From contig JBBTSY010000005.1 in assembly GCA_038064515.1 (NCBI GenBank), positions 50,093 through 114,092 on the forward strand: DNA of 64,000 nucleotides, given 5' to 3'. The translations under genes were made by a program, and so were the position numbers. Under the pieces are notes generated by a model, which was given only the letters and a program-made list of their open reading frames with translations, did not search any database and was not told the DNA's origin. This DNA is from Patescibacteria group bacterium (GTDB taxonomy: Bacteria; Patescibacteriota; Minisyncoccia; 2-02-FULL-40-12; GWA2-44-9). Below, piece after piece: positions 10,007-33,816 of this stretch (positions within the stretch are counted from its first letter, which is position 1; each line of letters starts with the position of its first letter).

Positions 10007-11138
10007 GCCCACATGCGGCTTGCTAGCCGCAGTACTTCAGCACCTTCGTGCTTCAGTTGCAAATCTTGTACAGTTAACCAGGTATTGGTGTATTTTTAGT
10101 CGGAGGCGATTCTTGAGCGGCTTTCGCACGCTCATGAAACTTCGCCTGGAACACCATACGACTTCCGATTTAGGCTTCGGATCAGCCTGGCTGACAAGTC
10201 ACTTGTGGTGAGCCTGCCGAACCAATCGACATCATTTTGTTGACCCTGTAGTGAATTTTCAACTTGCTTTCGCATTGGCCTTTAGGCCGGTTGAAAATCT
10301 ACTACGGGGTGAAGGATAGAGGTTGGATGTGAAAAATTAGAAAATAATTCTTCCCACCTTTCGCCTCAAACTTCTAACCTTTCAGGATTTTTTCGAAATT
10401 CGAAAAAATAGAAAGGAGGTGATCCAAGAGCAGCTTCCGCTACCCTTGCCTTGTTACGACTTAGTCTTTGTCATCGAGCCTACCTTGTCCCCACATAAAA
10501 ATATGGATCTTCGGGTATTCCCGACTCCCCTGACTTGACGGGCAGTGAGTGCAAAACTCGAGAACGTATTCACCGCAGCATTCTGATCTGCGATTACTAG
10601 CGATTCCAGCTTCAAAGAGGCAAGTTGCAGCCTCTTATCCGAACTAGGGATGCCTTTGATGGGATTAGCTCCACCTCGCGGTTTGGCAACCCATTGTAAC
10701 ATCCATTGTATCATGCGTGTAGCCCAGGGCATCAGAGGGCCACGCTGACTTGACGTCATCCCCGCCTTCCTCTGCGTTACCGCAGCAGTCTCGCGTGACA
10801 TATTTAACACACGATAGGGGTTGCGCTCGTTAATCCACTTAAGGAAACCTCTCACGAGACGAGCTGACGACAGCCGTGCAGCACCTGTCCTAGTGCCTTG
10901 CGGGGGCCAAAGTTTCCTAAGGCTTACACTAGAATTTCAAGCCCTGGTGAGGTTCCTCGGTTAGAGTCGAATTGAACCGCATGATCCACCGCTTGTGCGA
11001 ATTCCCGCCTATTTGTTTGAGTTTTAATCTTGCGATCGTACTTCCCAGGCGACACACTTAACGCGTTAGCTTCGCCACTGGAAGGGTCGATGCTCCCAAT
11101 AGCTAGTGTGCATAGTTTAGGGCGTGGACTACAAGGGT

Positions 11139-12133
11139 CATCTTGTATTAACTGCTATCTTCATTTCGAAGATTTTCCGTGTTACCACGGAGATCGGACT
11201 ATATCATTCTCTGAAGATTTTCCACTTTTTCTTCTTCTCTTGAACATATCTCTCAACGATCAGTTGAGAAAATCCGGTCAGAGAGCTTACTTCAGAGATC
11301 CAGCGTTGTTGTAATTCAGCATTTTTGTAAAGCAGGAGGACTTTGGGCAACATTGATGCCACCGCGATGTGAGGCAGGATGATGCGAAGAAGCTTTTGAA
11401 GCTCCTCGCTCGATCTTAGCCACAATCGGTAGTATTCGATCCGACGCCCTTCATGTACGCGAGAGGTTTTTGCAATGTGCACATGCACATCCCATACCAC
11501 ACGCAGGTACTTCTGGAGAAGTTTTTGTTCCTCCAAAGTAAAGGGGTCCGTACAGAATACTCCACGACGACTGTTCACGATAAGCGAACCGTCATCGAGC
11601 CACCAAACCGCAAGCGAGAGTGGCGTCAACTGATTGAGCCACTTCCGCCTGATCCGCAGTCGACCACCTTCGTGGGTGAGTCGATAGAGTTCCGTGAGCG
11701 GTTCAGTTGCCAGGCTTTGATACCTCAACTTCTCTCCTCCATAACCATCGGCTTTTTGAAGCCAGTGATCTGATTTCCCAGAAATTTCCTTCAACTGATC
11801 GGCTTTCCAAAAGAAATACTCCTTTTGATGAACCGAGTGCCGAAACGAAAATCTGGCATTCTTGTAGGGTTGATAGAGCTTTAATGAGCCGTCTCCCAAC
11901 ACAGAACCAAGAATGAGTGCTTTACATTGATCCGACAAAAATGATTTGGTCATTTTCTATCTTCTAAATTTACATAGTCTCTACGGGGTCCTCGATGTTA
12001 CCATCGGGACTTCCCTCGGGATTCCCCTTCAGAAAAGAAGGGCTTCCCCGATACAGCTAGATGCGCACCTCGATATCGCTATCGAGGGGGACACCGTTTA
12101 GTCCGCGATACATTCGTATCGGGACAAGGATTT
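11139..12133 (-). mobile_element. Self-splicing intron (group I-like) inserted in 16S rRNA after the position equivalent to E. coli ~793, carrying a homing endonuclease ORF
   Basis: The conserved 16S segment GGATTAGAT|ACCCTTGTAGTCCACGCC is split. The 5' exon ends in U and the last intron nucleotide is G (omega-G). The intron contains the LAGLIDADG ORF. Confidence 0.75.
11204..11953 (-). CDS. LAGLIDADG homing endonuclease (double-motif), intron-encoded
   Basis: The two motifs are LILGSVLGDGSL and LAVWWLDDGSL. The ORF is co-oriented with the rRNA. Confidence 0.85.
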   Translation of the reverse strand: MTKSFLSDQCKALILGSVLGDGSLKLYQPYKNARFSFRHSVHQKEYFFWKADQLKEISGKSDHWLQKADGYGGEKLRYQSLATEPLTELYRLTHEGGRLRIRRKWLNQLTPLSLAVWWLDDGSLIVNSRRGVFCTDPFTLEEQKLLQKYLRVVWDVHVHIAKTSRVHEGRRIEYYRLWLRSSEELQKLLRIILPHIAVASMLPKVLLLYKNAELQQRWISEVSSLTGFSQLIVERYVQEKKKKWKIFRE

Positions 12134-12349
12134 ATCTAATCCTTTTTGATCCCCACGCTTTCGTGATTGACCGTCAGTTGAGCACTAGCAAGCTGCCTTC
12201 GCTTTTGGTGTTCCGTGCAATATCAATGGATTTCACCCCTACACTGCACGTTCCGCTTGCCTCTTACCCACTCTAGTCGTGCCGTTTCCAACGCGGTCCC
12301 GAAGTTAAGCCTCGGGATTTAACATCAGACTAGCACAACCGGATGCTCA

Positions 12350-12382
<33 letters not shown>

Positions 12383-13103
12383 GGGTCTCTGTATTACCGC
12401 TGCTGCTGGCACAGAGTTAGCAACCCCTTATTCTCGTGGTACCGTCAAAATTCGTCCCACGCAAAAGCGGTTTACGACCCGAAGGCCTTCTTCCCGCACG
12501 CGGCGTCGCTCCATCAGGCTTTCGCCCATTGTGGAATATTCTCGACTGCTGCCACCCGTAGGTGTACGAACCGTGTCTCAGTTTCGTCGTTGAGGGTCGT
12601 GCTCTCACACCCCCTACCCGTCATAGCCTTGGTGGGCTTTTACCCCGCCAACAAGCTGATAGGACCTAGGCCACTCCCAAAGCGGCTTGCGCCTTTAATC
12701 TTACGATACCATCGGGAATTAGCGGAACTTTCGCCCCGTTGTGCCCGACTCTGGGTTATGTACCAAGGTGTTACTAACTCGTTCGCCACTAGCTCGCCTC
12801 CTTGCGGAGGCGGCCCGTTCGACTTGCATGCCTTATCCACGCCGCCAGCGTTCATCCTGAGCCACAATCAAACTCTCTTAAAGAATACTGGTTAACTGTA
12901 CAAGATTGACAACGAACTGTTGCATCTATCGGAACACGCTAGAATTCGCATGGTAGGGCGTCCAGACAATAACACAACCACGATTAGCTCCATTGAGAAC
13001 CAATCGTGGTTGCACTACCAGCACTACCTTGTAAACATGTTAGTTTCCTACATCCATAGTGTACTGTCTATTATAATCCCACGGGGATGAATGTCAATAC
13101 CCT

Positions 13104-17368: not shown

Positions 17369-17992
17369 CTAGAAAAACTTGAGTGTTAAAAGCATATTGT
17401 CAAAAACTTCTATATCATTGCCGGGCACAGGAATAGTTAAGGGTCTTTCCTCCCAACGGAAAGCTAGATAATAGCTGTCATCATTAAAACTGACTTGCGG
17501 CCCCAAATATATAATGATCCGGCCAGTACTTTCACCGCCAGCCGAACCATAATCTATCAGATCATATTTTCTAAAAGTCTTGCCATCGATTTTAACGGTA
17601 GAATCTGGCGATCTTCTTTTATTCGTGGTGATTTGATATTTTAAATCGCTTGTTTCAAATAGATCTTTGGAAATTAAATCAAAATAAACCGGCGCATCAA
17701 CGCTAACCATATCGTAGTATTTGATTTTTTGCGGGCTAAAATAATGGCCGTTATTATGCCAATGAGCCGGATACCTAAATTCAAAACCACCGCCGATCAC
17801 CTCTTCTCCGTGAAGATTATTAAATACAAAGATTTTTATATCCCCCTCTGGACTAACACTAGGAGTCGACTGCAAAATATTAGCAGTAACTGACTGATTA
17901 TTTTCCGGTGATTCTTTTACAAAAACAAAATAACCGGTCGCAATAGTTGCCCCTAAAATAAGAAGGCCAATTTTTTGGAAAAATTTTGTCAT
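17369..17992 (-). CDS. Hypothetical secreted protein
   Basis: An N-terminal signal/TM segment. No recognisable motif. Confidence 0.4.
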   Translation of the reverse strand: MTKFFQKIGLLILGATIATGYFVFVKESPENNQSVTANILQSTPSVSPEGDIKIFVFNNLHGEEVIGGGFEFRYPAHWHNNGHYFSPQKIKYYDMVSVDAPVYFDLISKDLFETSDLKYQITTNKRRSPDSTVKIDGKTFRKYDLIDYGSAGGESTGRIIIYLGPQVSFNDDSYYLAFRWEERPLTIPVPGNDIEVFDNMLLTLKFF

Positions 17993-19036
17993 TTACCTGA
18001 ATTTTACGCCGCCGCGGATCGTTATTTTACCTCTTACAACATGACCACTGGGCCAATAGGTAATGATGACAATGCCCTGTGCTCCCGGCGCATCACTACC
18101 AGCAGCAGTATCCTCACCGCCGCCACCGCCGCCACCGCCATAAAGACCCCCAGCGCCAGGATCGCCTGCATCAGCCGCGCCGCCGCCGCCACCGCCAGTA
18201 CCTACAGTAGTTGACCATTGGGTAGCTGTACCGCCAGCGCCGCCGGTTTCGGTGCTAAGATCGGTGCCCCCGCCACCTCCTCCACCGTCGGAACCGTTAC
18301 CGGCAGGCACTGTGCCACCACCGACACCGTTAGGACCGTTCCCACCGGCACCACCAGTGTCAGAACCAGGACCGTTGGCACCTGCAGTAGACTGAGCTCC
18401 TCCTGATCCCCCTCCGCCTCCGCCGCCATCAGAAGCAGCACCAGCAGGAGAACCGCCAGCTCCACCGACTCCGCCTGGACCTGCAGCGCCTCCTCCTCCT
18501 CCTCCTCCTCCATCTGTGCCGCCGGTACTGCTTCCGCCATTACCCCCAGCAAAAGTGATGTCTCCAACGCTATCTGCAGTTGACCCACCAGTACCGCCGG
18601 TATTCCCGCTTCCAGCTTTTCCTCCATCGGCAACAACGTTCGCACTCGTTGATGCAGCTGCGCCAAACCACGTATCTTCGCCTTTGACAGCGTCACCACC
18701 CCCTACACCGACATTAACATTAACACTACTCCCGCGAGTCAAACTAATATTCCTAACATAGGCGTACGCCCCTCCGCCGCCGCCGCCGCAACCATGGGTT
18801 CCACAGACGTCATTTCCTCCTCCGCCGCCGCCAATCGCTTCAATTACGTTGGCTTGACTGTTCCAATCACGAGGAACAGTCCACGTTGAAGCCCCTGTTA
18901 TTGTTATAAATACCTGTGTCTTAATTCCGGCTTGCGCTTCCTCAATATCATAAATACCATTGGGAAAAGGAAAGGCAAAAGTGATTACTAAAATAACCGT
19001 TATTATATTTTTAATTTTGATGATAAACTGGATCAT
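17993..19036 (-). CDS. Glycine-rich secreted protein (Gly_rich-family-like, C-terminal G-IVIITY motif)
   Basis: An N-terminal TM/signal is followed by long poly-Gly tracts interspersed with T, S, A and D. The C-terminal QGIVIITYWPSG resembles the conserved GxVxIxY end of glycine-rich proteins. Confidence 0.55.
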   Translation of the reverse strand: MIQFIIKIKNIITVILVITFAFPFPNGIYDIEEAQAGIKTQVFITITGASTWTVPRDWNSQANVIEAIGGGGGGNDVCGTHGCGGGGGGAYAYVRNISLTRGSSVNVNVGVGGGDAVKGEDTWFGAAASTSANVVADGGKAGSGNTGGTGGSTADSVGDITFAGGNGGSSTGGTDGGGGGGGGAAGPGGVGGAGGSPAGAASDGGGGGGGSGGAQSTAGANGPGSDTGGAGGNGPNGVGGGTVPAGNGSDGGGGGGGTDLSTETGGAGGTATQWSTTVGTGGGGGGAADAGDPGAGGLYGGGGGGGGEDTAAGSDAPGAQGIVIITYWPSGHVVRGKITIRGGVKFR

Positions 19037-19057
19037 TTTTAATAAAATTATAACACG

Positions 19058-22000
19058 CTACAAGGTTGGCTCTGTTGATATTTCTGGGGTTGGTTCTGAA
19101 CTTATCGAAGGAATTGGAGTGATTTCTGGTGTTACACTAATACTCGGTTCAGGAGTTGATTCCGCAACTGGTTCTAGCGTTGGTTCTACTGAAGGTTCTG
19201 GCGTGACTGATGGCGCTGGAGTTGATTCCTGGGTTGATTCAGGAGTCGGTTCTAGCGAAAACTCAGGTGTTGCCGAAGGTGTTGCAGACGGCGCGATAGC
19301 ATCTATCGCTGTGCCCTCCGTAGCTTCTAGCGAAGGACGGGGCGAGAATACCGTCTTAGCGTCTTTGATTGCCAAAGCAATCCAACTGAATTGGATATCA
19401 AACGGTGCAGGTTTGTTGAGTTTCACCGTAAATCCTTTAACATTCTTGTTGGTTACAATGTATCTGATGTCGCTATCAAACAGCAACTGCTCGTCTGCTT
19501 CGCTGGCTGAAGCGGTATTTAAAGATATGGTCGTATTCACAACCGGCTGGTTCAAGTATTCCCTCTCAAATGAAACACTAGCATACGTCGCGCCTTTGGA
19601 AACCACCAAAAATCCTCCGGTATCATTATTGAAGTACGGCCGGCCAAAGAATTCAACATCGCTGTTGAACAGCACCAGGTTGCCTTCAGAACCGATGCGG
19701 TCCACCGTTAAGCCACCGTTGAACACTGCCGAACCCTCAACGCTCAAACCGGCATTAAGAGCAATGTCTTCCCTCGGATTCCACGAGTTGCTGGCCAGAG
19801 CCATTAACTGCTCACCGGTCAAGGCCATCTGGCTGTTGAGCGCATACACGCTATTGGCTAACACGGCTAGCTGATTATCCATTAGCTCTAAAGCTGGGCT
19901 ATCGATCTCGTCAGCAACGATTTTCAAGGCTCTCAATTCATTCAAGTAAGCCAAGCCGACAATACTCAAATTATTTGCCGAAATCCTAGAGGCGATGATT
20001 TCTTTATTAGCAACTATCAGGTCAGTCACGACCTGCGAAGGGATTTCCTGATCCGGATCCTGCTTCAATAGCGCGGTCAGTATGGACTGCGTATCGCCCA
20101 AATCAGACATAAGGCCGGAATTTTCTATTCTGCCGCTGTAGTAGGTGTTATTGATGAATAACAATATGGTACCGATGTTTTTTTGGTCGTTGTAATTTTC
20201 AAGTGCTTGCCCGATAACCCGGCCAGCTTTCGATGCGCGCATGGCTACACCGGGTCGGGTGGCTGAATTAGTAAGATAGTCCCCCACCTTAATTGGACCA
20301 TTCTCGGTAGACACTTTCACGGGCACACGGCCAGCTAAAGCAATTGGCACATGCCCAGGTGGCAAATGTTCCAAGGCCTCAGCACCATAAGCAAATTTTG
20401 TACCAGTAATCAGGGCCGCTGGGTTGGTTGACACTACACCTAAGGGTAGCGAACCAGGCACGGCTCTATTTACATATTGAGAACTAGCCAAATCTGCCGA
20501 AACAATCTCACCGGCAGTAAGCGTTGAATCGGATGTCGGAAACGCTTCGGCATAGTCAACACATCCCGGATTTGGAGCACTTACACCGGTACATAGAGCC
20601 GATCCGCCAGCATGTGAGTTAATGCTTCCGCGAATACCCAGCCGTCCGGCATTACTCATAGAAGCCAAGGTCAAACTGTTAGAATCCTGAACCCAGAGAA
20701 CACCGTGAGGAAGCTGCCTTGATGATGAAGCTAAAACCGTAATGGTTAGGGCGCTATTGCCAGCTGCAAATTCTGATACATTGGAATTAATATCCAGACC
20801 GGGATTAGAAGCCGAGGCAGTAGTATCAACCTGCAAAATATCATCATCTCCGCCAGCATCCTGAATCGTAAATGCTCTAGCGCTATTGCGGAAAATATTG
20901 AAGTCACCTACAGATGCTGATGCATTAGTGGTAAAGGCAACCTTTCCGTCATCAGTAATAGTAAACACCGTAGTACCGGCGTCTTGGATTATAAAATCTC
21001 CGGTCCCCTTAAGGTTTAAATTAAAGTCCAAACCATTTATTGAAATTGAAGCAAAGCCACTAAGTTCCAAACCGGTCAGTTGGGTCGAGGCAGCCGTAAA
21101 TTTCCAGAAACCGGTAATTGTTTCATTGAAAGCACGTGAAGCAGGGCCATTGGTCCAATCTAACCTGACAAATCCTTCAGAAGCAGTATTAGATATATTA
21201 AAGTGATTTGCTTCGAAGGAAATGCTGGTAATTTTTACTTGGGAACCACCGATTAAACCAAAGTCGAGGCCTGAGAATGATGAACCGCCACCAGTGTCAT
21301 CAGTCAGACAAGAGAATTTACCAGTAGTCGAGTTCCAGTTTAAAGTTTGAGTTTCAGTATTACAGTTGGAGCCAATGCTAGAGAAGGCAGAGCCAAACAA
21401 GGCTGAGACTGAGGCGTTACCGACTACTTCAAAGTTAGCGCTAGAAGAAGCTCCCAGGGTGAATGTCTGGAGTTGGGTCCAGGTATTGGCTAGAGATCTT
21501 GAGGCCGGGGCACCAGCATTAGACCAATCTAGGTCAATGACTGATTCGGAAGCAGTGTTGGAAAGAAGGAAGATATTAGATTCAAAGGAAAGCGACCCAA
21601 TATGGCTGAATGTCCCTCCAGTCTCACGGACTGAGATGCCTTTAGGACTGGAGCTGCCGCCACTGTTTTGATCAGCTTCACAATTGAACTTACGGTTAGT
21701 TAGATCATAGGTGACTTTGTTAGCGGTGCCATCACAATCAGAGAAGGTGCCGCCATCAGTGTCTTGGAGATAGAATTGAGAGATAGAGGCATAACCGACG
21801 ACTTCAAAGTTAGATGATGTTGAAGCATTGGTGAAAGTAGCCAGGCCGGTCACACCGAGGGTGGAAGAGAGCGTTGTAGCCCCAGTTACGCCAATAGTAG
21901 AGCCAAATGTCGTCGCTCCGGAGATAGAAGCTGTACCCCCCACTTCTAAGTTGGTGTTAGTCGTACCGCCAGCATTGATACCTAAGCGGGTGTTGCCAGT

Positions 22001-25000
22001 TAATTCAAAGTTAGTAGAGACGGAAACACCGCCATTGAAGGTAGCTAAGCCAGTATTGGTGAAGGTCAGAGCAGCAGTAACGGGACCATTTAAGGCAATG
22101 GCGCCTGTGCCAGTGGTAAAGGTGGAAGCACCAGCTTGGGTAAAGTTACCAGATATGGAGGCAGCACCGCCCACTTCCAGGGAGGTGTCAGTGCTGCCAC
22201 CGGGATTGATGCCTAAACGGAAGTTACCGGTTAATTCAAGGTTTGCCCCGACTGACGCTCCTGCAGAGAATGTTTGTAGTCCAGTGAAGGTGTTGGCTCC
22301 TAAGATGGCTAAGGTACCCGCGGTGGGTAGCGTCACCGATGTGACGCCGCTCACCGTTAATGTGGTAGCAAAGTTGCCCGATATGGTTAGGGTAGAAGCA
22401 GCATTGTTGGCTACACCCGTGCCACCGAAAGCAGGAGTAATAACGCTGCCGTTCCAGGTGCCGGTCGTAATAACACCGGTATTAGGAGTGATAACGAGGC
22501 CATTGTAGCCTGTAGCACCTGTGACAGCGCCACTCAAGGTAACAGCGCCAGAAATGGAAGCCGTACCTCCGATTTCAAGAGTCTGGTTGGTATTAATTAC
22601 GTTGATGCCTAACCTGGTATTGCCAGTTAATTCAAAGTTGGTGGAGACGGAAACACCGCCGGAGAAGGTAGCGAGGCCGTTTGCGGTGAGTCCTGATGTA
22701 GCAGTAATGAGTCCCGAGATCGTCGGTGTTGCCGTCCAAGATGTGGGCGAAATAGTAAGTCCGGAACCTGCAATGGTCGTTCCCGTTGACGCATTACCGA
22801 AGGTAATTGCGCTGTCTCCGGAATAAACTGTCGCTTTCACCGTGCCACCAGCCGCCTCAAACGTGCCTGAAACAGATGCTCTGCCAGTAAGGGAGATGAG
22901 GCCATTGGTCGCATCGAAGGTAATTCTGTTGGCCTGGCCAGAATCCCTGATGTCATTGCCGGATACCTCGATATCGTCGTTGAAGTCGACGAAACCGGTG
23001 GCCAGGTTGAGGCGAGAGGCGCCTGTGGAGTCCTGGATATCATTGCCATTGATGCGAATGTCATCGGAGATAGAGGCTAGGCCTACTACTTCTAAGGCTA
23101 CGGAGAGATTTGATGTGTTCACGCCGATACCGGTGGTGTTGACGAAGAAGTCAGAGGTACCTACTTCGAAGTTCGAAGAGACAGAAGCATTAGCAAGGGT
23201 GGTTTGGCCCGTAACATCGAGGGTAGATGAGAGGGTTGTAGCCCCAGAAACGCCAAGTGTAGAGCCAAATGTCGCCACTCCTGAGATACTCGCAGTGCCG
23301 CCGACTTCTAACCGAGCACTCGTGATTGGGCCCGCATTGATGCCCAAGTTGCCGGTAGTGATCTCAAAGCCGGTGGAAGAAGAAGCACCGCCGGAGAAGG
23401 TGGCAAGACCGGTGGTAGTGAGCGTAGAAGCAAAGGTTGCGTCATCTTGCACATCCAAGGTGCCGGCTGAGTTCAGGGTGAGGTTTCCGCTCGTGGTGCC
23501 GATGGTGGTGGTGTCCAGCGTGATGTTGTCAAAGGTGAATAGGCCGGCATCCGTGATGGTGAGGTAAGTCGTGCCGCCACGCTTCACAATGAAGTCTCCG
23601 GTGGAGTCCAGATCAACCAATAGGCCAGTCGCACCGCCGGAAAGCGATGCCCCAGAGCGGAATTCCCAAAGGGAGGTGATGGTTTCTGCCGCATTGACAT
23701 GCGCAACATTCACCGAAAGCGCCGCATCGTTCACGCTTCCTCCAGAACCTACGGTTAAAGTATCCGAAACCTCGTCATCAGCCCACGGGTTGGCGATGTT
23801 TACCCAGTTGCCCGCAATAGTTTCAGCTTCGGAGAGCGATGCGGGTCCTGCGGCTCCCCAATCTAATCGGACCAGTGCTTCTGTTCCCGAAAAGGAAACG
23901 GCAAATGAACCGCCTTCAAAGGATACGGAAGAAACATTCGTGCCGCTTCCGCTGAATCCCTCGCGTACCTCAATTAAGGCCCCGCCCCCTCCTCCTGCGT
24001 CGTCATCCGTACATGAGAAAAGCCCAGTTTCTCCGCTCCAATTCAATGCTTTGTTGCCGGCACCTGCATCGCAGTCAGTGAGGCCTGCACCGAATAATGC
24101 GGAGACAGATGCTGTGCCAATCTCAAGGGCATTGGCAAACTGGCCAGATGCCGCAGTGAATCTCCAGAGACCGGTAATCTGCTCATTAGCTGCCCGTGAC
24201 GCGGGACCGTTGGTCCAGTCAAGGCGCACAATCGATTCAGTTGAACCTGAAGCAGCCAGCGTAAACATATTACCTTCAAAATTGAGCGTTGTTGCTGCGG
24301 CGAGATTCTGGGTGCCTCCTTCTTCGGTTTTAACGCCTGATCCTCCGCCGCCCCCATCTGCCAGACATGAGAACCGTCCCGTTGACGAGCTCCAATTCAG
24401 AGTTTGGGATTCATCACTGCAATTGGTAAGCCCCGCGCCGAAGAGAGAAGAAGCAGAGGCATAGCCGACCACTTCAAAGTTCAACGATGCAGTAGCGTTG
24501 TTTGATATGAGGATACGACCAGAATCAACGGCCAAGGTGCCGAATTTGCCCGTAGTGGCTTCAAAGAATGATCCGGAGGCGTTCACCAGCGAGAGGTTAT
24601 CCGCAAGCGTCAAGGTTGGGTTTCCGCTCACCCCATTGCCGTTGGAAACATCAATTTTGTTCGTCGTGCCGGTGATTGTCCGGGCGGCGAATGAATTAGA
24701 TCCTGTAACCGTGAGGAGGCCATTCGATCCGCCAGTTCCCGCAAGTGCGGTTAAGGTAGCATCTAATGGCTGAAGTCCGGATACATTAAGCGTATTCGTA
24801 GACCATGAGAGGTTCGTGCCTGCAGTAATTCTCGTTGAAGGCGTATCTCTGAATAATTCCCACGCTGTCTGCGACGCGGTCAGTGGCATAGTAAACCCCG
24901 TATCAGCACCGAATGTATTGCCTGACCATGCAAAACCAGTTCCTGCTGTGATGCGCGTACTTGGAATATCGCGGAATGTTTCCCAGTTGCTTGTTGATGC

Positions 25001-28000
25001 GGTGAGAGGAATGTTAAATCCAGCCATAAGCGTGATGGCATCTCCGGAAAGCGCTAGGCCGGTAGCCGTTACGCTAAGATTCGTCATGCCAGAAATATTC
25101 ACTGAAGCGCATGTAAGGGTATCCCCAATCGTTGTGACGAACTGGTTAGTGCATCCGGTTGGATAGTTCTGCAATCCGGTCCAATTAATAGTGATGGCAT
25201 CAGCAATGGATGCATCGGTGAGAGGCGTACCAAGAGTCAATATTGAGATTGACGCAGTCCCGATTTCAAGCGTATTCGTAAATTGGTTCGATGCGGCAGT
25301 GAATCGCCATGCTCCTGCAATAGTTTGATCAGCCGACCGTGAAGCAGGTCCACCTGAACCCCAATCAAGATTGATTCGCGCTTCGATGGATCCCGAAGCA
25401 GCGAGTGTGAATTTTCCGCCGTCAAAATTTAATATCGTTGTCGTGGAAAGTATCTGCGCACCGCTTTCCTCAGTCTTAAACTCCGCTCCGCCCGCTCCGC
25501 CCGCATCAGCTCCGCATGAGAATCTTCCCGTGGTCGAATTCCATAGAAGATTCTGCGATTCGGCACTGCAATCAGTTGCGGGAAACGCGGAACCAAAGAG
25601 CGCCGACACTGATGCATTATTACGGAACTCCCATGCTCCCGTCACCGTTTCATTGAGCGAGAGTGACGCGCCACCGCCACTGATGGTCGTCCATGTAAGA
25701 ACACCGTTTCCGTCAGTCGACAAAGCTTGATTTGCCGTGCCATCGGCTCCTGGCCATGTATAGCTTACGTTTCCAAGCTTCAGCGCCGCGGGCAACTCCA
25801 GCACGCCGGACGTCGCGGTGATTGCATTTCCATCAATTCGAACGTTATCGACAGTAAGTACCGAACTGCTTAGCCCTACTTGATGGTTATTGCCGGTATA
25901 CTGCAATGGAAACGGAACCCTCTGCTGTAACGACAAGAGCGATCCTTTGATCGCATCGAGTTCTTCTCGGACGCTGTTGGACACAGGAGGAGCGTTTACC
26001 GTAATTGCACTTCCTACATAGCGCCTTATGAGAGTATTTAATTCATTGATCTGACGCTGGGAGAATGTTGCGGATGCCGATGGCGTCGGAGTGCCCGCCG
26101 GAGAAGGAGTGGGTGTCGGCCGACGCCGCCCGAGAGGGAACAGCCGCGGGAGTGCCGCAGTGGTCTGGTTGGATGCTCGCAGGATCGAAGGAGACTTTAT
26201 TGAAGCGATTGGTGCTGGAGCTTTTGATTTTCGAAAAGATGCGAAAAGTGTCGAAAGCGAAGCTTGCTGGGACCAAAAGGTCCGATGGGAAGCATACGTT
26301 TGGTCTGCCAGCGTACCGACCTTTCCTTGGACGATATTCCTGAATGATAGTGCTAAGCGGCCAAAGCCCAACGAGAATTGCTGGGTCTGGGATGGAAGAA
26401 CGGGCCGCGCCAAGGGAGCTGTCTTAAAATGCGTAATGCCTTCGTTCAAAGATCTCCATCCCTCTTCTGCTACTGATTCAAATCCTTGAACCTGCGGACC
26501 CGCAAGAGTTCTTTTGCCAAATGAGTGCGGATCCTTGATGGCGATGCGGGTTTTAGTGGTTCCTCGGTTTGTCCATGCGGTATGAATCTGCCATGCGGTT
26601 CCCCCTAATCCCCGATCAACGGCTTTGACCAGAATGGCCATGCCGCGGTCGATGGGGTTGAGGAAGTAGCCGTTGAATGCTTCAAGCTGTGCGAGAAGCG
26701 AGCCCCGCTCCTTAACCGGCAAAGGCAGAGTCATATCTGGCGTTTTTACTACATACGAGAGAATTCCCAGCTGTTCAGATGCACGGAGAATAGGGGGAGG
26801 AATTGCTGCTGGCCGTGCCGGAGTTCGACGAGGTATAGCAGCGATACCAGCGGTTTTCGATTGCTGTTGGAGAAAAATTTTATGGGCCACATACGTATTA
26901 TCAGCAATAGAACCGATGCGATGAACCAATATATCAGTCGCCCATCCAAGCAGATTTTCAACGGGATTATCTACATTGAGAGAGAATGAGACCTGGCTCG
27001 GCTCTCGGCGCGGCATCTGAGGTCCAGACATGAATGCAATCTGGTTTTTTGCGATACCCTTTCGCATGCCGCCTTCAATATCTTTAACGGCGGTATGTGC
27101 AAAAGATTCAAAATCTCCAACACGAGGATACGCCAATTTTTCCTTTCCAAACATCTGCGGATCTTTGATAGCGATTGGGCGAGGATCGCGGTTTGGTATC
27201 CACGACAATACTTGAGGAATATAATTCGATCCCGTAGCAAGCTCTTGATCGACGGTGCGGACAAGAGCGCTCATCGCACGGTCGATGGGGTTGAGGAAGT
27301 AGCCGTTGAATCCTTCAAGCTGTGCGAGAAGCGGTTTCCATGTATATGCTTGAACCGTTGCACCTTTCGTCAGCGGCAAAGGAATCGGAATGTCCGCTTC
27401 TTGCACGAATGCCATCAGAGGTTCTGCAAATGCTTGTCTCGATCGCTCGAGATCATTTGAAAAATCAGAATGCTTTGCCGGAAGTAATTCAGGAACATGA
27501 GCATTCTGTTTGCTCACCTCGTGAGCGCTGGCACTCCAGAAAATGAAAAGGGCAAGGAGGATAAGCCCCAAACCACGTGGTGATGGTCTCAGGTTTATCC
27601 TACTTGCCCGAATTCGTTCGGCTATGTGGAAAAGAGCTAGTGAAGGAACTGTTATGGGCTTTCGAAGAAGGCCGTTCTCCGGAACCTCTTTAGAGATCTG
27701 GACACTTTCAAACGCGCGTACTCGTCGTTGGATCTCTGTCACTTTTTTATACGCTTCCAACGAACCGCGCGATACGAACCATCGCTTGTCTTCCCGTATG
27801 CTCCTCACCCGTCCTTGGCGCGCTAACCGTCCGATGTGATCAGCATCGTATCCGAACTCCTGCGCCAAGACTGAGGTAGCAGCATAGGTTTCTCCTCCAA
27901 CTTCTCGCACCGACGATTCACTCGTGGGACTCTTCTCGTCTTGGGCGAGCTGGGCGGAAGCGGCGGTTTGCTTTTTGATTGTATCTGATCCCTGCAAGGT

Positions 28001-28003
28001 CAC
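19058..28003 (-). CDS. Giant (2981 aa) single-pass membrane-anchored surface protein with multiple internal repeat families
   Basis: An uninterrupted 8.9-kb ORF. There is a TM helix at about aa 144-160 (GLGLILLALFIFWSAS). Two tandem ~200-aa repeats follow, each with LAQLE(G/A)FNGYFLNPIDR. Next come at least five ~100-aa modules carrying a conserved Cys pair and an LDW(T/S)NGPASR motif, then numerous T/G/S-rich ...TGLATFSGGVSVSTNFELTGNTRLGIN... repeats. The C-terminus is a PT/E-rich linker. Confidence 0.8.
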   Translation of the reverse strand: MTLQGSDTIKKQTAASAQLAQDEKSPTSESSVREVGGETYAATSVLAQEFGYDADHIGRLARQGRVRSIREDKRWFVSRGSLEAYKKVTEIQRRVRAFESVQISKEVPENGLLRKPITVPSLALFHIAERIRASRINLRPSPRGLGLILLALFIFWSASAHEVSKQNAHVPELLPAKHSDFSNDLERSRQAFAEPLMAFVQEADIPIPLPLTKGATVQAYTWKPLLAQLEGFNGYFLNPIDRAMSALVRTVDQELATGSNYIPQVLSWIPNRDPRPIAIKDPQMFGKEKLAYPRVGDFESFAHTAVKDIEGGMRKGIAKNQIAFMSGPQMPRREPSQVSFSLNVDNPVENLLGWATDILVHRIGSIADNTYVAHKIFLQQQSKTAGIAAIPRRTPARPAAIPPPILRASEQLGILSYVVKTPDMTLPLPVKERGSLLAQLEAFNGYFLNPIDRGMAILVKAVDRGLGGTAWQIHTAWTNRGTTKTRIAIKDPHSFGKRTLAGPQVQGFESVAEEGWRSLNEGITHFKTAPLARPVLPSQTQQFSLGFGRLALSFRNIVQGKVGTLADQTYASHRTFWSQQASLSTLFASFRKSKAPAPIASIKSPSILRASNQTTAALPRLFPLGRRRPTPTPSPAGTPTPSASATFSQRQINELNTLIRRYVGSAITVNAPPVSNSVREELDAIKGSLLSLQQRVPFPLQYTGNNHQVGLSSSVLTVDNVRIDGNAITATSGVLELPAALKLGNVSYTWPGADGTANQALSTDGNGVLTWTTISGGGASLSLNETVTGAWEFRNNASVSALFGSAFPATDCSAESQNLLWNSTTGRFSCGADAGGAGGAEFKTEESGAQILSTTTILNFDGGKFTLAASGSIEARINLDWGSGGPASRSADQTIAGAWRFTAASNQFTNTLEIGTASISILTLGTPLTDASIADAITINWTGLQNYPTGCTNQFVTTIGDTLTCASVNISGMTNLSVTATGLALSGDAITLMAGFNIPLTASTSNWETFRDIPSTRITAGTGFAWSGNTFGADTGFTMPLTASQTAWELFRDTPSTRITAGTNLSWSTNTLNVSGLQPLDATLTALAGTGGSNGLLTVTGSNSFAARTITGTTNKIDVSNGNGVSGNPTLTLADNLSLVNASGSFFEATTGKFGTLAVDSGRILISNNATASLNFEVVGYASASSLFGAGLTNCSDESQTLNWSSSTGRFSCLADGGGGGSGVKTEEGGTQNLAAATTLNFEGNMFTLAASGSTESIVRLDWTNGPASRAANEQITGLWRFTAASGQFANALEIGTASVSALFGAGLTDCDAGAGNKALNWSGETGLFSCTDDDAGGGGGALIEVREGFSGSGTNVSSVSFEGGSFAVSFSGTEALVRLDWGAAGPASLSEAETIAGNWVNIANPWADDEVSDTLTVGSGGSVNDAALSVNVAHVNAAETITSLWEFRSGASLSGGATGLLVDLDSTGDFIVKRGGTTYLTITDAGLFTFDNITLDTTTIGTTSGNLTLNSAGTLDVQDDATFASTLTTTGLATFSGGASSSTGFEITTGNLGINAGPITSARLEVGGTASISGVATFGSTLGVSGATTLSSTLDVTGQTTLANASVSSNFEVGTSDFFVNTTGIGVNTSNLSVALEVVGLASISDDIRINGNDIQDSTGASRLNLATGFVDFNDDIEVSGNDIRDSGQANRITFDATNGLISLTGRASVSGTFEAAGGTVKATVYSGDSAITFGNASTGTTIAGSGLTISPTSWTATPTISGLITATSGLTANGLATFSGGVSVSTNFELTGNTRLGINVINTNQTLEIGGTASISGAVTLSGAVTGATGYNGLVITPNTGVITTGTWNGSVITPAFGGTGVANNAASTLTISGNFATTLTVSGVTSVTLPTAGTLAILGANTFTGLQTFSAGASVGANLELTGNFRLGINPGGSTDTSLEVGGAASISGNFTQAGASTFTTGTGAIALNGPVTAALTFTNTGLATFNGGVSVSTNFELTGNTRLGINAGGTTNTNLEVGGTASISGATTFGSTIGVTGATTLSSTLGVTGLATFTNASTSSNFEVVGYASISQFYLQDTDGGTFSDCDGTANKVTYDLTNRKFNCEADQNSGGSSSPKGISVRETGGTFSHIGSLSFESNIFLLSNTASESVIDLDWSNAGAPASRSLANTWTQLQTFTLGASSSANFEVVGNASVSALFGSAFSSIGSNCNTETQTLNWNSTTGKFSCLTDDTGGGSSFSGLDFGLIGGSQVKITSISFEANHFNISNTASEGFVRLDWTNGPASRAFNETITGFWKFTAASTQLTGLELSGFASISINGLDFNLNLKGTGDFIIQDAGTTVFTITDDGKVAFTTNASASVGDFNIFRNSARAFTIQDAGGDDDILQVDTTASASNPGLDINSNVSEFAAGNSALTITVLASSSRQLPHGVLWVQDSNSLTLASMSNAGRLGIRGSINSHAGGSALCTGVSAPNPGCVDYAEAFPTSDSTLTAGEIVSADLASSQYVNRAVPGSLPLGVVSTNPAALITGTKFAYGAEALEHLPPGHVPIALAGRVPVKVSTENGPIKVGDYLTNSATRPGVAMRASKAGRVIGQALENYNDQKNIGTILLFINNTYYSGRIENSGLMSDLGDTQSILTALLKQDPDQEIPSQVVTDLIVANKEIIASRISANNLSIVGLAYLNELRALKIVADEIDSPALELMDNQLAVLANSVYALNSQMALTGEQLMALASNSWNPREDIALNAGLSVEGSAVFNGGLTVDRIGSEGNLVLFNSDVEFFGRPYFNNDTGGFLVVSKGATYASVSFEREYLNQPVVNTTISLNTASASEADEQLLFDSDIRYIVTNKNVKGFTVKLNKPAPFDIQFSWIALAIKDAKTVFSPRPSLEATEGTAIDAIAPSATPSATPEFSLEPTPESTQESTPAPSVTPEPSVEPTLEPVAESTPEPSISVTPEITPIPSISSEPTPEISTEPTL
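26649..26699. repeat. Intragenic near-identical direct repeat, copy 1 (partner at 27277..27333)
   Basis: cgatggggttgaggaagtagccgttgaat(g/c)cttcaagctgtgcgagaagcg occurs twice, ~630 bp apart, inside the giant gene. This matches the tandem protein-domain duplication. Confidence 0.8.
27277..27333. repeat. Intragenic near-identical direct repeat, copy 2
   Basis: The same ~55-bp sequence as at 26649, with 1-2 mismatches. Confidence 0.8.
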
Positions 28004-33560: not shown

Positions 33561-33635
33561 TGGTGCCGGTGGGAAGAGTCGAACTTCCGTTTGATCGTTA
33601 TGAGTGACCCGTTCTAACCGTTGAACTACGCCGGC
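33561..33635 (-). tRNA. tRNA with CAT anticodon (elongator Met or lysidine-modified Ile2), CCA encoded
   Basis: The sequence GCCGGCG-TA-GTTC-AACGGTTA-GAAC-G-GGTCA-CTCATAA-CGATC-AAAC-GGAAG-TTCGACT-CTTCC-CACCGGC-A-CCA folds as a cloverleaf. It lacks the three G-C pairs expected in an initiator anticodon stem. Confidence 0.8.
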
Positions 33636-33741: not shown

Positions 33742-33812
33742 CGCGGGGTAGAGAAACGGCATCTTGCAGGGCTCATAACCCTGAGTTCCGGGTTCGAATC
33801 CCGGCCCCGCAA
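33742..33812 (+). tRNA. Initiator tRNA-fMet (CAT)
   Basis: CGCGGGG-TA-GAGA-AACGGCA-TCTT-G-CAGGG-CTCATAA-CCCTG-AGTT-CCGGG-TTCGAAT-CCCGG-CCCCGCA-A. The C1:A72 mismatch and three consecutive G-C pairs in the anticodon stem are the bacterial initiator hallmarks. Confidence 0.85.
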
Positions 33813-33816
33813 CATT

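Follow-up and report, generated by a model that had tools for sequence, protein, structure and literature searches.

A giant Patescibacteria protein with a recurrent cysteine-pair module, a candidate tail-fibre-like surface fibre anchored in the cell membrane

Introduction

Cultivated Patescibacteria, which belong to the Candidate Phyla Radiation (CPR), live attached to other microbes. The molecules by which they recognise their hosts are described as largely unknown apart from type IV pili. A stretch of 64,000 nucleotides (nt) of a Patescibacteria group bacterium (assembly GCA_038064515.1, contig JBBTSY010000005.1, positions 50,093 to 114,092 of the forward strand; hereafter the window) carries an open reading frame (ORF) for a protein of 2981 amino acids (aa), referred to here as the giant. 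The locus raises the question what such a protein is built from and what it may do for the cell. An earlier note, made from the letters alone, had described a surface giant with at least three repeat families, among them a module of about 100 aa with a cysteine pair, and had supposed a role in attachment to host cells.

In this study, we describe the architecture of the giant and the family of proteins that share its cysteine-pair (Cys-pair) module, two C-terminal domains with similarity in fold to known proteins, and a gene neighbourhood that is conserved in part. We read the giant as a cell-anchored, probably trimeric surface fibre of the phage tail-fibre kind that has a lectin-like domain close to its distal end, and give this reading a probability of about 0.55.

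Results

The gene and its repeats

The reading frame is uninterrupted and begins with a GTG codon.

19058 to 28003, minus strand: gene of the giant, 2981 aa plus stop codon; NCBI MEK7589302.1, 'hypothetical protein AAB479_01570', Patescibacteria group bacterium

NCBI places the start at a TTG two codons further in, which gives 2979 aa, on a contig of 157 kb. The size given in the earlier note is confirmed, and its assignment to a CPR genome agrees with the NCBI label of the metagenome-assembled genome (MAG) and with a long insertion in the 16S rRNA gene of the window.

Internal repeats were located by BLAST of 120-aa segments against the whole protein, a comparison of the whole protein with itself having returned the identity match only. 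Together with motif positions this revealed more than three repeat families: besides the Cys-pair module there are a duplication of about 220 aa, two units of about 37 aa, four units with the sequence LEVGGTASISG and a Pro/Thr/Ser/Glu-rich tail. On the DNA level, Tandem Repeats Finder reported one short 20-nt array in the gene and no other, which indicates that the repeats of the giant are old and diverged and not an assembly artefact. The giant contains 14 cysteines, all of them in seven local pairs; six of these are given with the modules below, the seventh is 2471/2481.

The Cys-pair module

Five full modules of about 115 aa each, one degenerate sixth module and one hairpin devoid of cysteines are found in the giant.

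25679 to 25771, minus strand: Cys-less version of the hairpin, aa 745-775, YTWPGADGTANQALSTDGNGVLTW
25325 to 25663, minus strand: Cys-pair module 1, aa 781-893, Cys 812/830 (self-BLAST, Cys positions and module hidden Markov model, HMM)
25034 to 25321, minus strand: degenerate (sixth) module, aa 895-990, Cys 951/965 with 13 residues between them (module HMM, E=5.7e-5)
23822 to 24502, minus strand: Cys-pair modules 2 and 3 in tandem, aa 1168-1274 and 1275-1394, Cys 1195/1213 and 1311/1331
21122 to 21853, minus strand: Cys-pair modules 4 and 5 in tandem, aa 2051-2173 and 2174-2294, Cys 2090/2108 and 2214/2232

Compared with each other, the five full modules yield pairwise BLAST E-values down to 1e-35 and, for near-full-length pairs, 30-54% identity. 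The motif quoted in the earlier note (..DC..ESQ.LNW..TG.FSC..D..GGG...LDW.NGPASR) is present in all five, with 17 or 19 residues between the cysteines. The Cys-less segment at aa 745-775 resembles, by self-BLAST, the module parts that flank the hairpin. A hairpin with the same motif (YTWPSADGSSNQRLTTNGSGTLSW) is present in one relative, P0092, where the module profile places it at the position of the Cys hairpin. From the shared motif we infer that aa 745-775 would be an equivalent of the Cys hairpin.

No known family accounts for the module. Searches of the whole giant against Pfam-A, NCBIfam and PHROGs left it without a match. Pfam scans of nine cut-out segments (E up to 10) and of 35 single modules from 20 proteins gave noise only where the module is concerned, and no match to Big, cadherin or similar domains was among the results. 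Among PDB sequences, the whole giant found no match with phmmer, and a profile of the module found by hmmsearch only a chance similarity to WD40 (Sec13) at E-values of at least 0.15. The statement that no family could be named for the module thus stands for Pfam, NCBIfam, PHROGs and the PDB sequences. No account of the protein family or of the Cys-pair module was found in the literature searched, the coverage of which was incomplete, so that absence is not proven.

Nevertheless, the module is far from unique to this protein. A profile built from the five copies and run against 1.84 billion representative proteins retrieved 653 clusters at E<=1e-3; with the threshold set to E<=1e-10 there were 283, and with E<=1e-30 there were 90. 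The broad search proposed in the earlier note hence uncovers a real and widespread family. Its proteins reach 5948 aa with up to 20 matched stretches each, many being giants, and members bearing organism names are 'hypothetical proteins' of Candidatus Yanofskybacteria or Parcubacteria. Searches for homologues by word index all but failed to detect this protein: the module alignment returned six fragments and missed its own protein, and the whole protein returned itself and one other. For further analysis 157 relatives were assembled from the best 150 of the profile search, one distant whole-protein match and the six fragments of the word-indexed module search. They are 132-5948 aa long (partial sequences included), contain 1-20 module matches each and vary in domain order as well.

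These relatives carry 672 module matches, 127 of which are full, 376 cover the first half (the Cys hairpin) only and 18 the second half only. The Cys hairpin is three times as common alone as in the full unit. The module is therefore composite with the hairpin as its mobile core, and the view of it as a single unit of about 100 aa does not hold, even though its motif and the pairing of its cysteines do. In 600 aligned hairpins both cysteines are present in 583 and neither in seven; the ten seeming singles are one-column alignment shifts with both cysteines present. Conservation of the two cysteines in full modules amounts to 95% and 99%. According to the predicted topology, all 14 cysteines of the giant are on the outer side of the membrane. 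That the two residues are kept or lost only together, and on that side, is what an intrachain disulfide predicts, and by their pattern in the sequences the pair probably forms such a bond, stapling the hairpin.

An AlphaFold2 monomer model of one module (35-row alignment) reached a predicted local distance difference test (pLDDT) of 66 and a predicted template modelling score (pTM) of 0.32 and contains two beta-hairpins and no globular core. A Foldseek comparison of this model with the PDB gave noise (best E=3.7). The structure prediction called for in the earlier note thus delivers two hairpins at a confidence too low for fold comparison. A coreless model is in keeping with a unit whose folding takes place only within an oligomeric fibre, which is no proof.

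Two C-terminal domains and their linker

Towards the C-terminus lie two domains for which modelled folds could be compared with known structures.

20129 to 20557, minus strand: domain with the predicted fold of the phi29 gp12 D4 auto-chaperone (Peptidase_G2 type), aa 2483-2625, beginning with DYAE (2483-2486)
19682 to 20128, minus strand: helical linker, possibly a coiled coil, aa 2626-2774 (AlphaFold2 helices at pLDDT <50)
19364 to 19681, minus strand: H-type-lectin-like domain, aa 2775-2880
19061 to 19363, minus strand: Pro/Thr/Ser/Glu-rich low-complexity tail, aa 2881-2981

The earlier note had thought of Peptidase_S74 or Hint similarity in this region. Segment scans up to E=10 gave neither, and a G2-type auto-chaperone fold, analogous to these in function, is predicted there instead. 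In the model, aa 2483-2625 adopt the Peptidase_G2 fold, the closest known counterparts being the C-terminal D4 of gp12, the pre-neck appendage (tailspike) of Bacillus phage phi29 (MEROPS/Pfam Peptidase_G2; PDB 3gqh, 3suc), and D4 of the marine podovirus tailspike Dpo31 (PDB 28nb). On the sequence level, Pfam Peptidase_G2 scores 20.2 bits on the giant (E=4.2e-4), short of the cut-off of 25, and a profile search of PDB sequences finds 3gqh_A at E=0.053. The D-x-A-E motif of phi29 gp12 is present: D2483 is aligned with the first residue of the cleaved phi29 fragment, and also with the Asp in the DYAE motif that the Dpo31 D4 chain has near its start, and the D, A and E of DYAE are invariant in 12 homologues. 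The Asp and Glu of the phi29 motif are reportedly catalytic, a finding ascribed to Xiang and colleagues in 2009.

D4 is described as an auto-chaperone that aids trimer formation and was found cleaved off (PMC13317679). According to the intramolecular-chaperone mechanism for trimeric beta fibres, a C-terminal chaperone trimerises first and then templates the fibre (PMC4690869; PMC13317679). The G2-like domain is found in 28 of the 157 relatives, some of which have two copies. Self-cleavage before D2483 is made plausible by the conservation of the motif and problematic by the internal position of the domain; we give it about even odds. The G2-type fold also occurs in uncleaved capsid decoration proteins.

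Concerning the second domain, the top Foldseek matches of the model of aa 2775-2880 are SLL-2, Helix pomatia agglutinin and the discoidins, which points to an H-type lectin fold. Pfam H_lectin (PF09458) matches the giant at E=0.0094 with 16.5 bits against a cut-off of 24, and is matched by 9 of 20 homologues with a best E-value of 2.1e-5. The same segment resembles C-terminal fragments of phage tailspikes and pyocin fibres. A lectin-like domain is present in 26 of the 157 relatives. The linker between the two domains varies in length among relatives and is modelled at low confidence, which accounts for the mean pLDDT of only 50.8 of the C-terminal model.

N-terminal head, membrane anchor and shaft

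At the other end of the protein, a small head domain is followed by a membrane anchor, a duplicated domain and a linker.

27719 to 27886, minus strand: HTH_17-like (MerR/excisionase-type) domain, aa ~40-95, predicted to be cytoplasmic
27524 to 27577, minus strand: predicted membrane anchor, aa 143-160, the sole strongly hydrophobic stretch (Kyte-Doolittle scan)
26165 to 27502, minus strand: duplicated membrane-proximal domain of about 220 aa, aa 168-387 and 388-613 (self-BLAST, E down to 1e-19)
26054 to 26164, minus strand: Pro/Thr-rich linker, aa 614-650 (read from the sequence)

An Arg-rich flank (RIRASRINLRPSPR) precedes the hydrophobic stretch on its N-terminal side. By the positive-inside rule this would place the N-terminus inside and the remaining 2800 residues or so outside, and an outward-facing topology with a cytoplasmic N-terminus is predicted. 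Pfam HTH_17 matches the giant at E=0.018 (15.8 bits, cut-off 27), and homologous N-termini match it in 10 of 14 cases, at best with E=2.1e-7. Head and anchor are conserved in 16 of the 157 relatives. It is puzzling that a putative surface fibre has a head of DNA-binding type, predicted to be cytoplasmic, and that relatives keep it. The membrane-proximal domain has no Pfam match and was found, among the 157 relatives, only in the cluster of the giant itself.

Outside the Cys-pair modules, three further regions of the shaft were delimited.

24569 to 25021, minus strand: two units of about 37 aa followed by a segment 'LDATLTALAG...', aa 995-1145, common to relatives (P0006 among them)
21854 to 23686, minus strand: Thr/Gly/Ser-rich region, aa 1440-2050, with four copies of '...LGIN......LEVGGTASISG...', presumably beta-structured (composition, repeats)
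20558 to 21121, minus strand: stretch before the chaperone-like domain, aa 2295-2482, ending in a short Cys loop, C2471-x9-C2481

The units of about 37 aa occupy aa 995-1070 and follow the pattern ..PLTASTSNWE.FRD.PSTRITAGT...W..NT. The Thr/Gly/Ser-rich region matches itself in self-BLAST with up to 61% identity (E=3e-37); its unit has the consensus GLATFsGG.SvS.nFEL.GN.rLGIN......LEVGGTASISG, four copies of which lie within aa 1440-2070. Against Pfam, aa 1440-2050 yielded nothing but a sub-threshold match to LptD_N. The C-x9-C loop (aa 2471-2481; 20561 to 20593, minus strand), the seventh Cys pair, ends two residues before D2483. It is kept in the three closest homologues and absent from remoter ones, which have GADYAEWF at this place.

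Genomic context and distribution

The gene of the giant is surrounded by housekeeping genes: TatD and methionyl-tRNA synthetase upstream, three small genes and then leucyl-tRNA synthetase downstream, and a 16S rRNA gene close by. Nothing phage-like was found in this neighbourhood.

17993 to 19036, minus strand: downstream gene 1, Gly-rich, 347 aa, hydrophobic segment at the N-terminus (Pfam Gly_rich_2, E=1.3e-3, below cut-off)
17369 to 17992, minus strand: downstream gene 2, 207 aa, no family match; syntenic in loci L002, L003 and L006
16886 to 17320, minus strand: downstream gene 3, 144 aa, membrane-anchored, member of a very large unannotated and apparently CPR family

Related loci were sought by scanning one genome per GTDB species with an alignment of four sequences of the G2-like domain. 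This gave 66 loci, mostly of Patescibacteria (Yanofsky-, Magasanik- and Saccharibacteria, Microgenomates, Uhr-, Davies-, Morani- and Paceibacteria, and others), together with a few in MAGs labelled Omnitrophota, Acidobacteria, Bacteroidota or 'Gammaproteobacteria'. Among the Saccharibacteria, homologues are carried by L006, L008 and L036. The Cys-pair module was found in six of the 66, all of them CPR.

In three other CPR loci (L002, L003, L006) a homologue of the giant is likewise followed by the Gly-rich protein and then by the 207-aa protein. Homologues of the 144-aa protein often come directly after homologues of the giant: among 50 evaluable loci, 6 have one on the same strand no more than 4 kb downstream, and L023 and L036 hold one as well. 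Assuming that the family occurs once or twice per genome of about 1 Mb, chance adjacency would be expected in about 0.2 of 50 loci, so that the linkage of the 144-aa gene to the giant looks real, though it is not universal. Altogether, linkage of downstream genes to homologues of the giant was seen in L002, L003, L006, L008, L014, L017, L023, L036, L046 and L060. The tRNA synthetase and TatD neighbours are not common to other loci. Of the 144-aa family at least 3435 members were counted, hardly any of them annotated; two relatives carry the Pfam domain LytR_C.

Many of the loci with a G2-like domain (L007, L009, L011, L022, L025 and others) come from MAGs labelled 'uncultured Gammaproteobacteria'. 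Since L007 holds homologues of the CPR-typical 144-aa protein, at least some of these labels may be wrong.

Overlapping with the giant and with the Gly-rich gene are three long antisense ORFs of 241-304 aa (18960 to 19874, 22842 to 23567 and 23571 to 24464, all plus strand). Most likely they arise as a by-product of the codon composition of the sense genes, which is biased. An 'orthologue' of one of them is present in L003, probably only because the sense strand is conserved there.

Elsewhere in the window, the 16S rRNA gene (10412 to 12883, minus strand) measures 2472 nt against a model of 1533 positions, which implies an insertion of about 940 nt, and a 249-aa ORF lies inside it (11204 to 11953, minus strand). 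CPR 16S genes are known to contain long insertions, some of which encode homing endonucleases. Two tRNA-Met (CAT) genes stand back to back, one on each strand, with about 100 nt between them (33561 to 33635, minus strand; 33742 to 33813, plus strand).

Discussion

As we read it, the giant is a fibrous surface protein made of phage-type parts and as such not categorically new. By analogy it would work in the way of those tail fibres or tailspikes of phages that have an intramolecular chaperone, a comparison that comes without membership in a curated family at threshold. In the mechanism that we propose, the cytoplasmic HTH_17-like head and one transmembrane helix would hold the N-terminus, with about 2800 residues outside the cell. 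The duplicated membrane-proximal domain and the Pro-rich linker would lead into a Thr/Gly/Ser-rich repeat shaft of about 1800 residues, presumably beta-structured. Each Cys-pair module would consist of a disulfide-stapled beta-hairpin (C-x17-19-C), then a turn rich in Gly and then another hairpin with LDW.nGPASR at its end, and the staples may stiffen the hairpins of the shaft outside the cell. The phi29-gp12-type auto-chaperone domain would probably nucleate trimerisation of the shaft and may cut the chain before D2483. Beyond it, the helical linker would lead to the H-type-lectin-like domain, which could bind glycan on another cell. The attachment to a host cell supposed in the earlier note is a reasonable proposal, which the predicted topology and the lectin-like domain now ground somewhat better.

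Comparison with known systems defines how far the analogy goes. D4 of phi29 gp12 and of Dpo31 belongs to virion proteins, whereas the carrier here is a membrane-anchored cellular protein, and the similarity stays below the Pfam cut-off; moreover, the domain of the giant is internal, followed by the helical linker, the lectin-like domain and the low-complexity tail, and is duplicated in some relatives. The H-type lectins closest to aa 2775-2880 (PF09458) are Helix pomatia agglutinin, coral SLL-2 and the C-terminal domain of Dictyostelium discoidin I/II, while the domain of the giant scores below cut-off, sits on a bacterial giant and has a Pro/Thr-rich tail after it. Fibres with an S74-type chaperone (T5 pb1, K1F endosialidase) and R-type pyocin fibres differ in that the chaperone type of the giant is G2, with no Peptidase_S74 match, and phage and R-type pyocin fibres are attached to a baseplate, in contrast to the predicted attachment of the giant by its N-terminus to the cell membrane. 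With the giant Big, cadherin and RTX adhesins it shares size, repetitiveness and predicted surface exposure, but it has none of their repeats and uses Cys-stapled hairpin units, as we predict them, instead.

Several observations weigh against the fibre with a lectin-like outer end. The matches of the giant to Peptidase_G2, H_lectin and HTH_17 are all below the Pfam cut-offs, the module model (pLDDT 66) is too weak for fold comparison and the C-terminal model is of low mean confidence. Nothing indicates that the source organism can form extracytoplasmic disulfides. In phages the G2-type domain is terminal and discarded; here it is internal, with about 500 residues after it, so that it is not a terminal and released domain, and some relatives have two copies. 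If the chain were cut at D2483, the anchored fibre would lose its lectin-like domain, which is at odds with a simple tip-adhesin model. Finally, tblastn against 50,697 phage genomes gave no match for two tandem modules and only two weak matches for the G2-like domain, one to an unannotated phage record and one to a Campylobacter phage 'putative tail fiber protein'. PHROGs matches of C-terminal segments were scattered, weak and uninformative (an unnamed family, a scaffolding protein, tail-fibre assembly).

The best of the other explanations is that the giant is a structural component of the envelope, an S-layer-like or fibrillar coat that gives the cell surface shape or protection and binds no other organism specifically. 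A coat protein could well be membrane-anchored, very long, Thr/Ser/Gly-rich and repetitive and sit among housekeeping genes; the giant is frequently accompanied by a small membrane protein that is very widespread in the CPR and of which two relatives have the cell-envelope domain LytR_C, and no adhesion-specific domain of the giant exceeds a curated threshold. Length, copy number and domain order vary greatly among the relatives, however, which is more typical of fast-evolving recognition proteins than of lattice coats, and the domain near the C-terminus resembles lectins and the C-terminal fragments of phage and pyocin fibres. We therefore regard a coat as unlikely, if worth keeping in mind. 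We see a slim chance that beta-rich regions of the shaft (aa 1400-2060 and 2295-2482) open the host envelope by degrading polysaccharides, as a depolymerase or a lyase, in the manner of phi29 gp12 and Dpo31, and that the auto-chaperone serves this tailspike-like enzyme; no enzyme family was detected in the giant.

A phage tail-fibre gene, from a prophage or from a contaminating phage contig, is already largely refuted and highly improbable: the fibre-like design, the auto-chaperone-type domain, the resemblance to C-terminal fragments of phage tailspikes and pyocin fibres and the two weak tblastn matches would suit it, but tRNA synthetases, TatD and other housekeeping genes lie on both sides on the 157-kb contig, the predicted cytoplasmic head and membrane anchor are features that virion proteins lack, neither a whole-protein PHROG match nor a module match in the phage genomes was obtained, and many CPR genomes contain homologues, some of which lie next to the same cellular neighbour. 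Membership among virion tail fibres or tailspikes is likewise not indicated, given the absence of a whole-protein PHROG match, the housekeeping context and the N-terminal transmembrane anchor. Prophage origin was rejected on the gene context and the anchor.

Returning to the anchored, tail-fibre-like surface fibre, a more far-reaching version can be drawn, which we consider doubtful. In this version CPR bacteria would widely possess membrane-rooted receptor-binding organelles of the tail-fibre type with a new disulfide-stapled fold, the internal G2-type domain would act as a processing switch that cuts at D2483 and releases or re-arms the lectin-like fragment, and not as a folding aid that is thrown away, and the HTH_17-like head together with the small membrane protein would link the fibre to the interior of the cell.

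The findings suggest that cells and phages share one fibre-building toolkit, the evidence being silent on the direction of transfer. The module profile would annotate hundreds of giant CPR proteins. For the organism itself, an anonymous 'hypothetical protein' becomes a defined and testable candidate for host recognition in the CPR.

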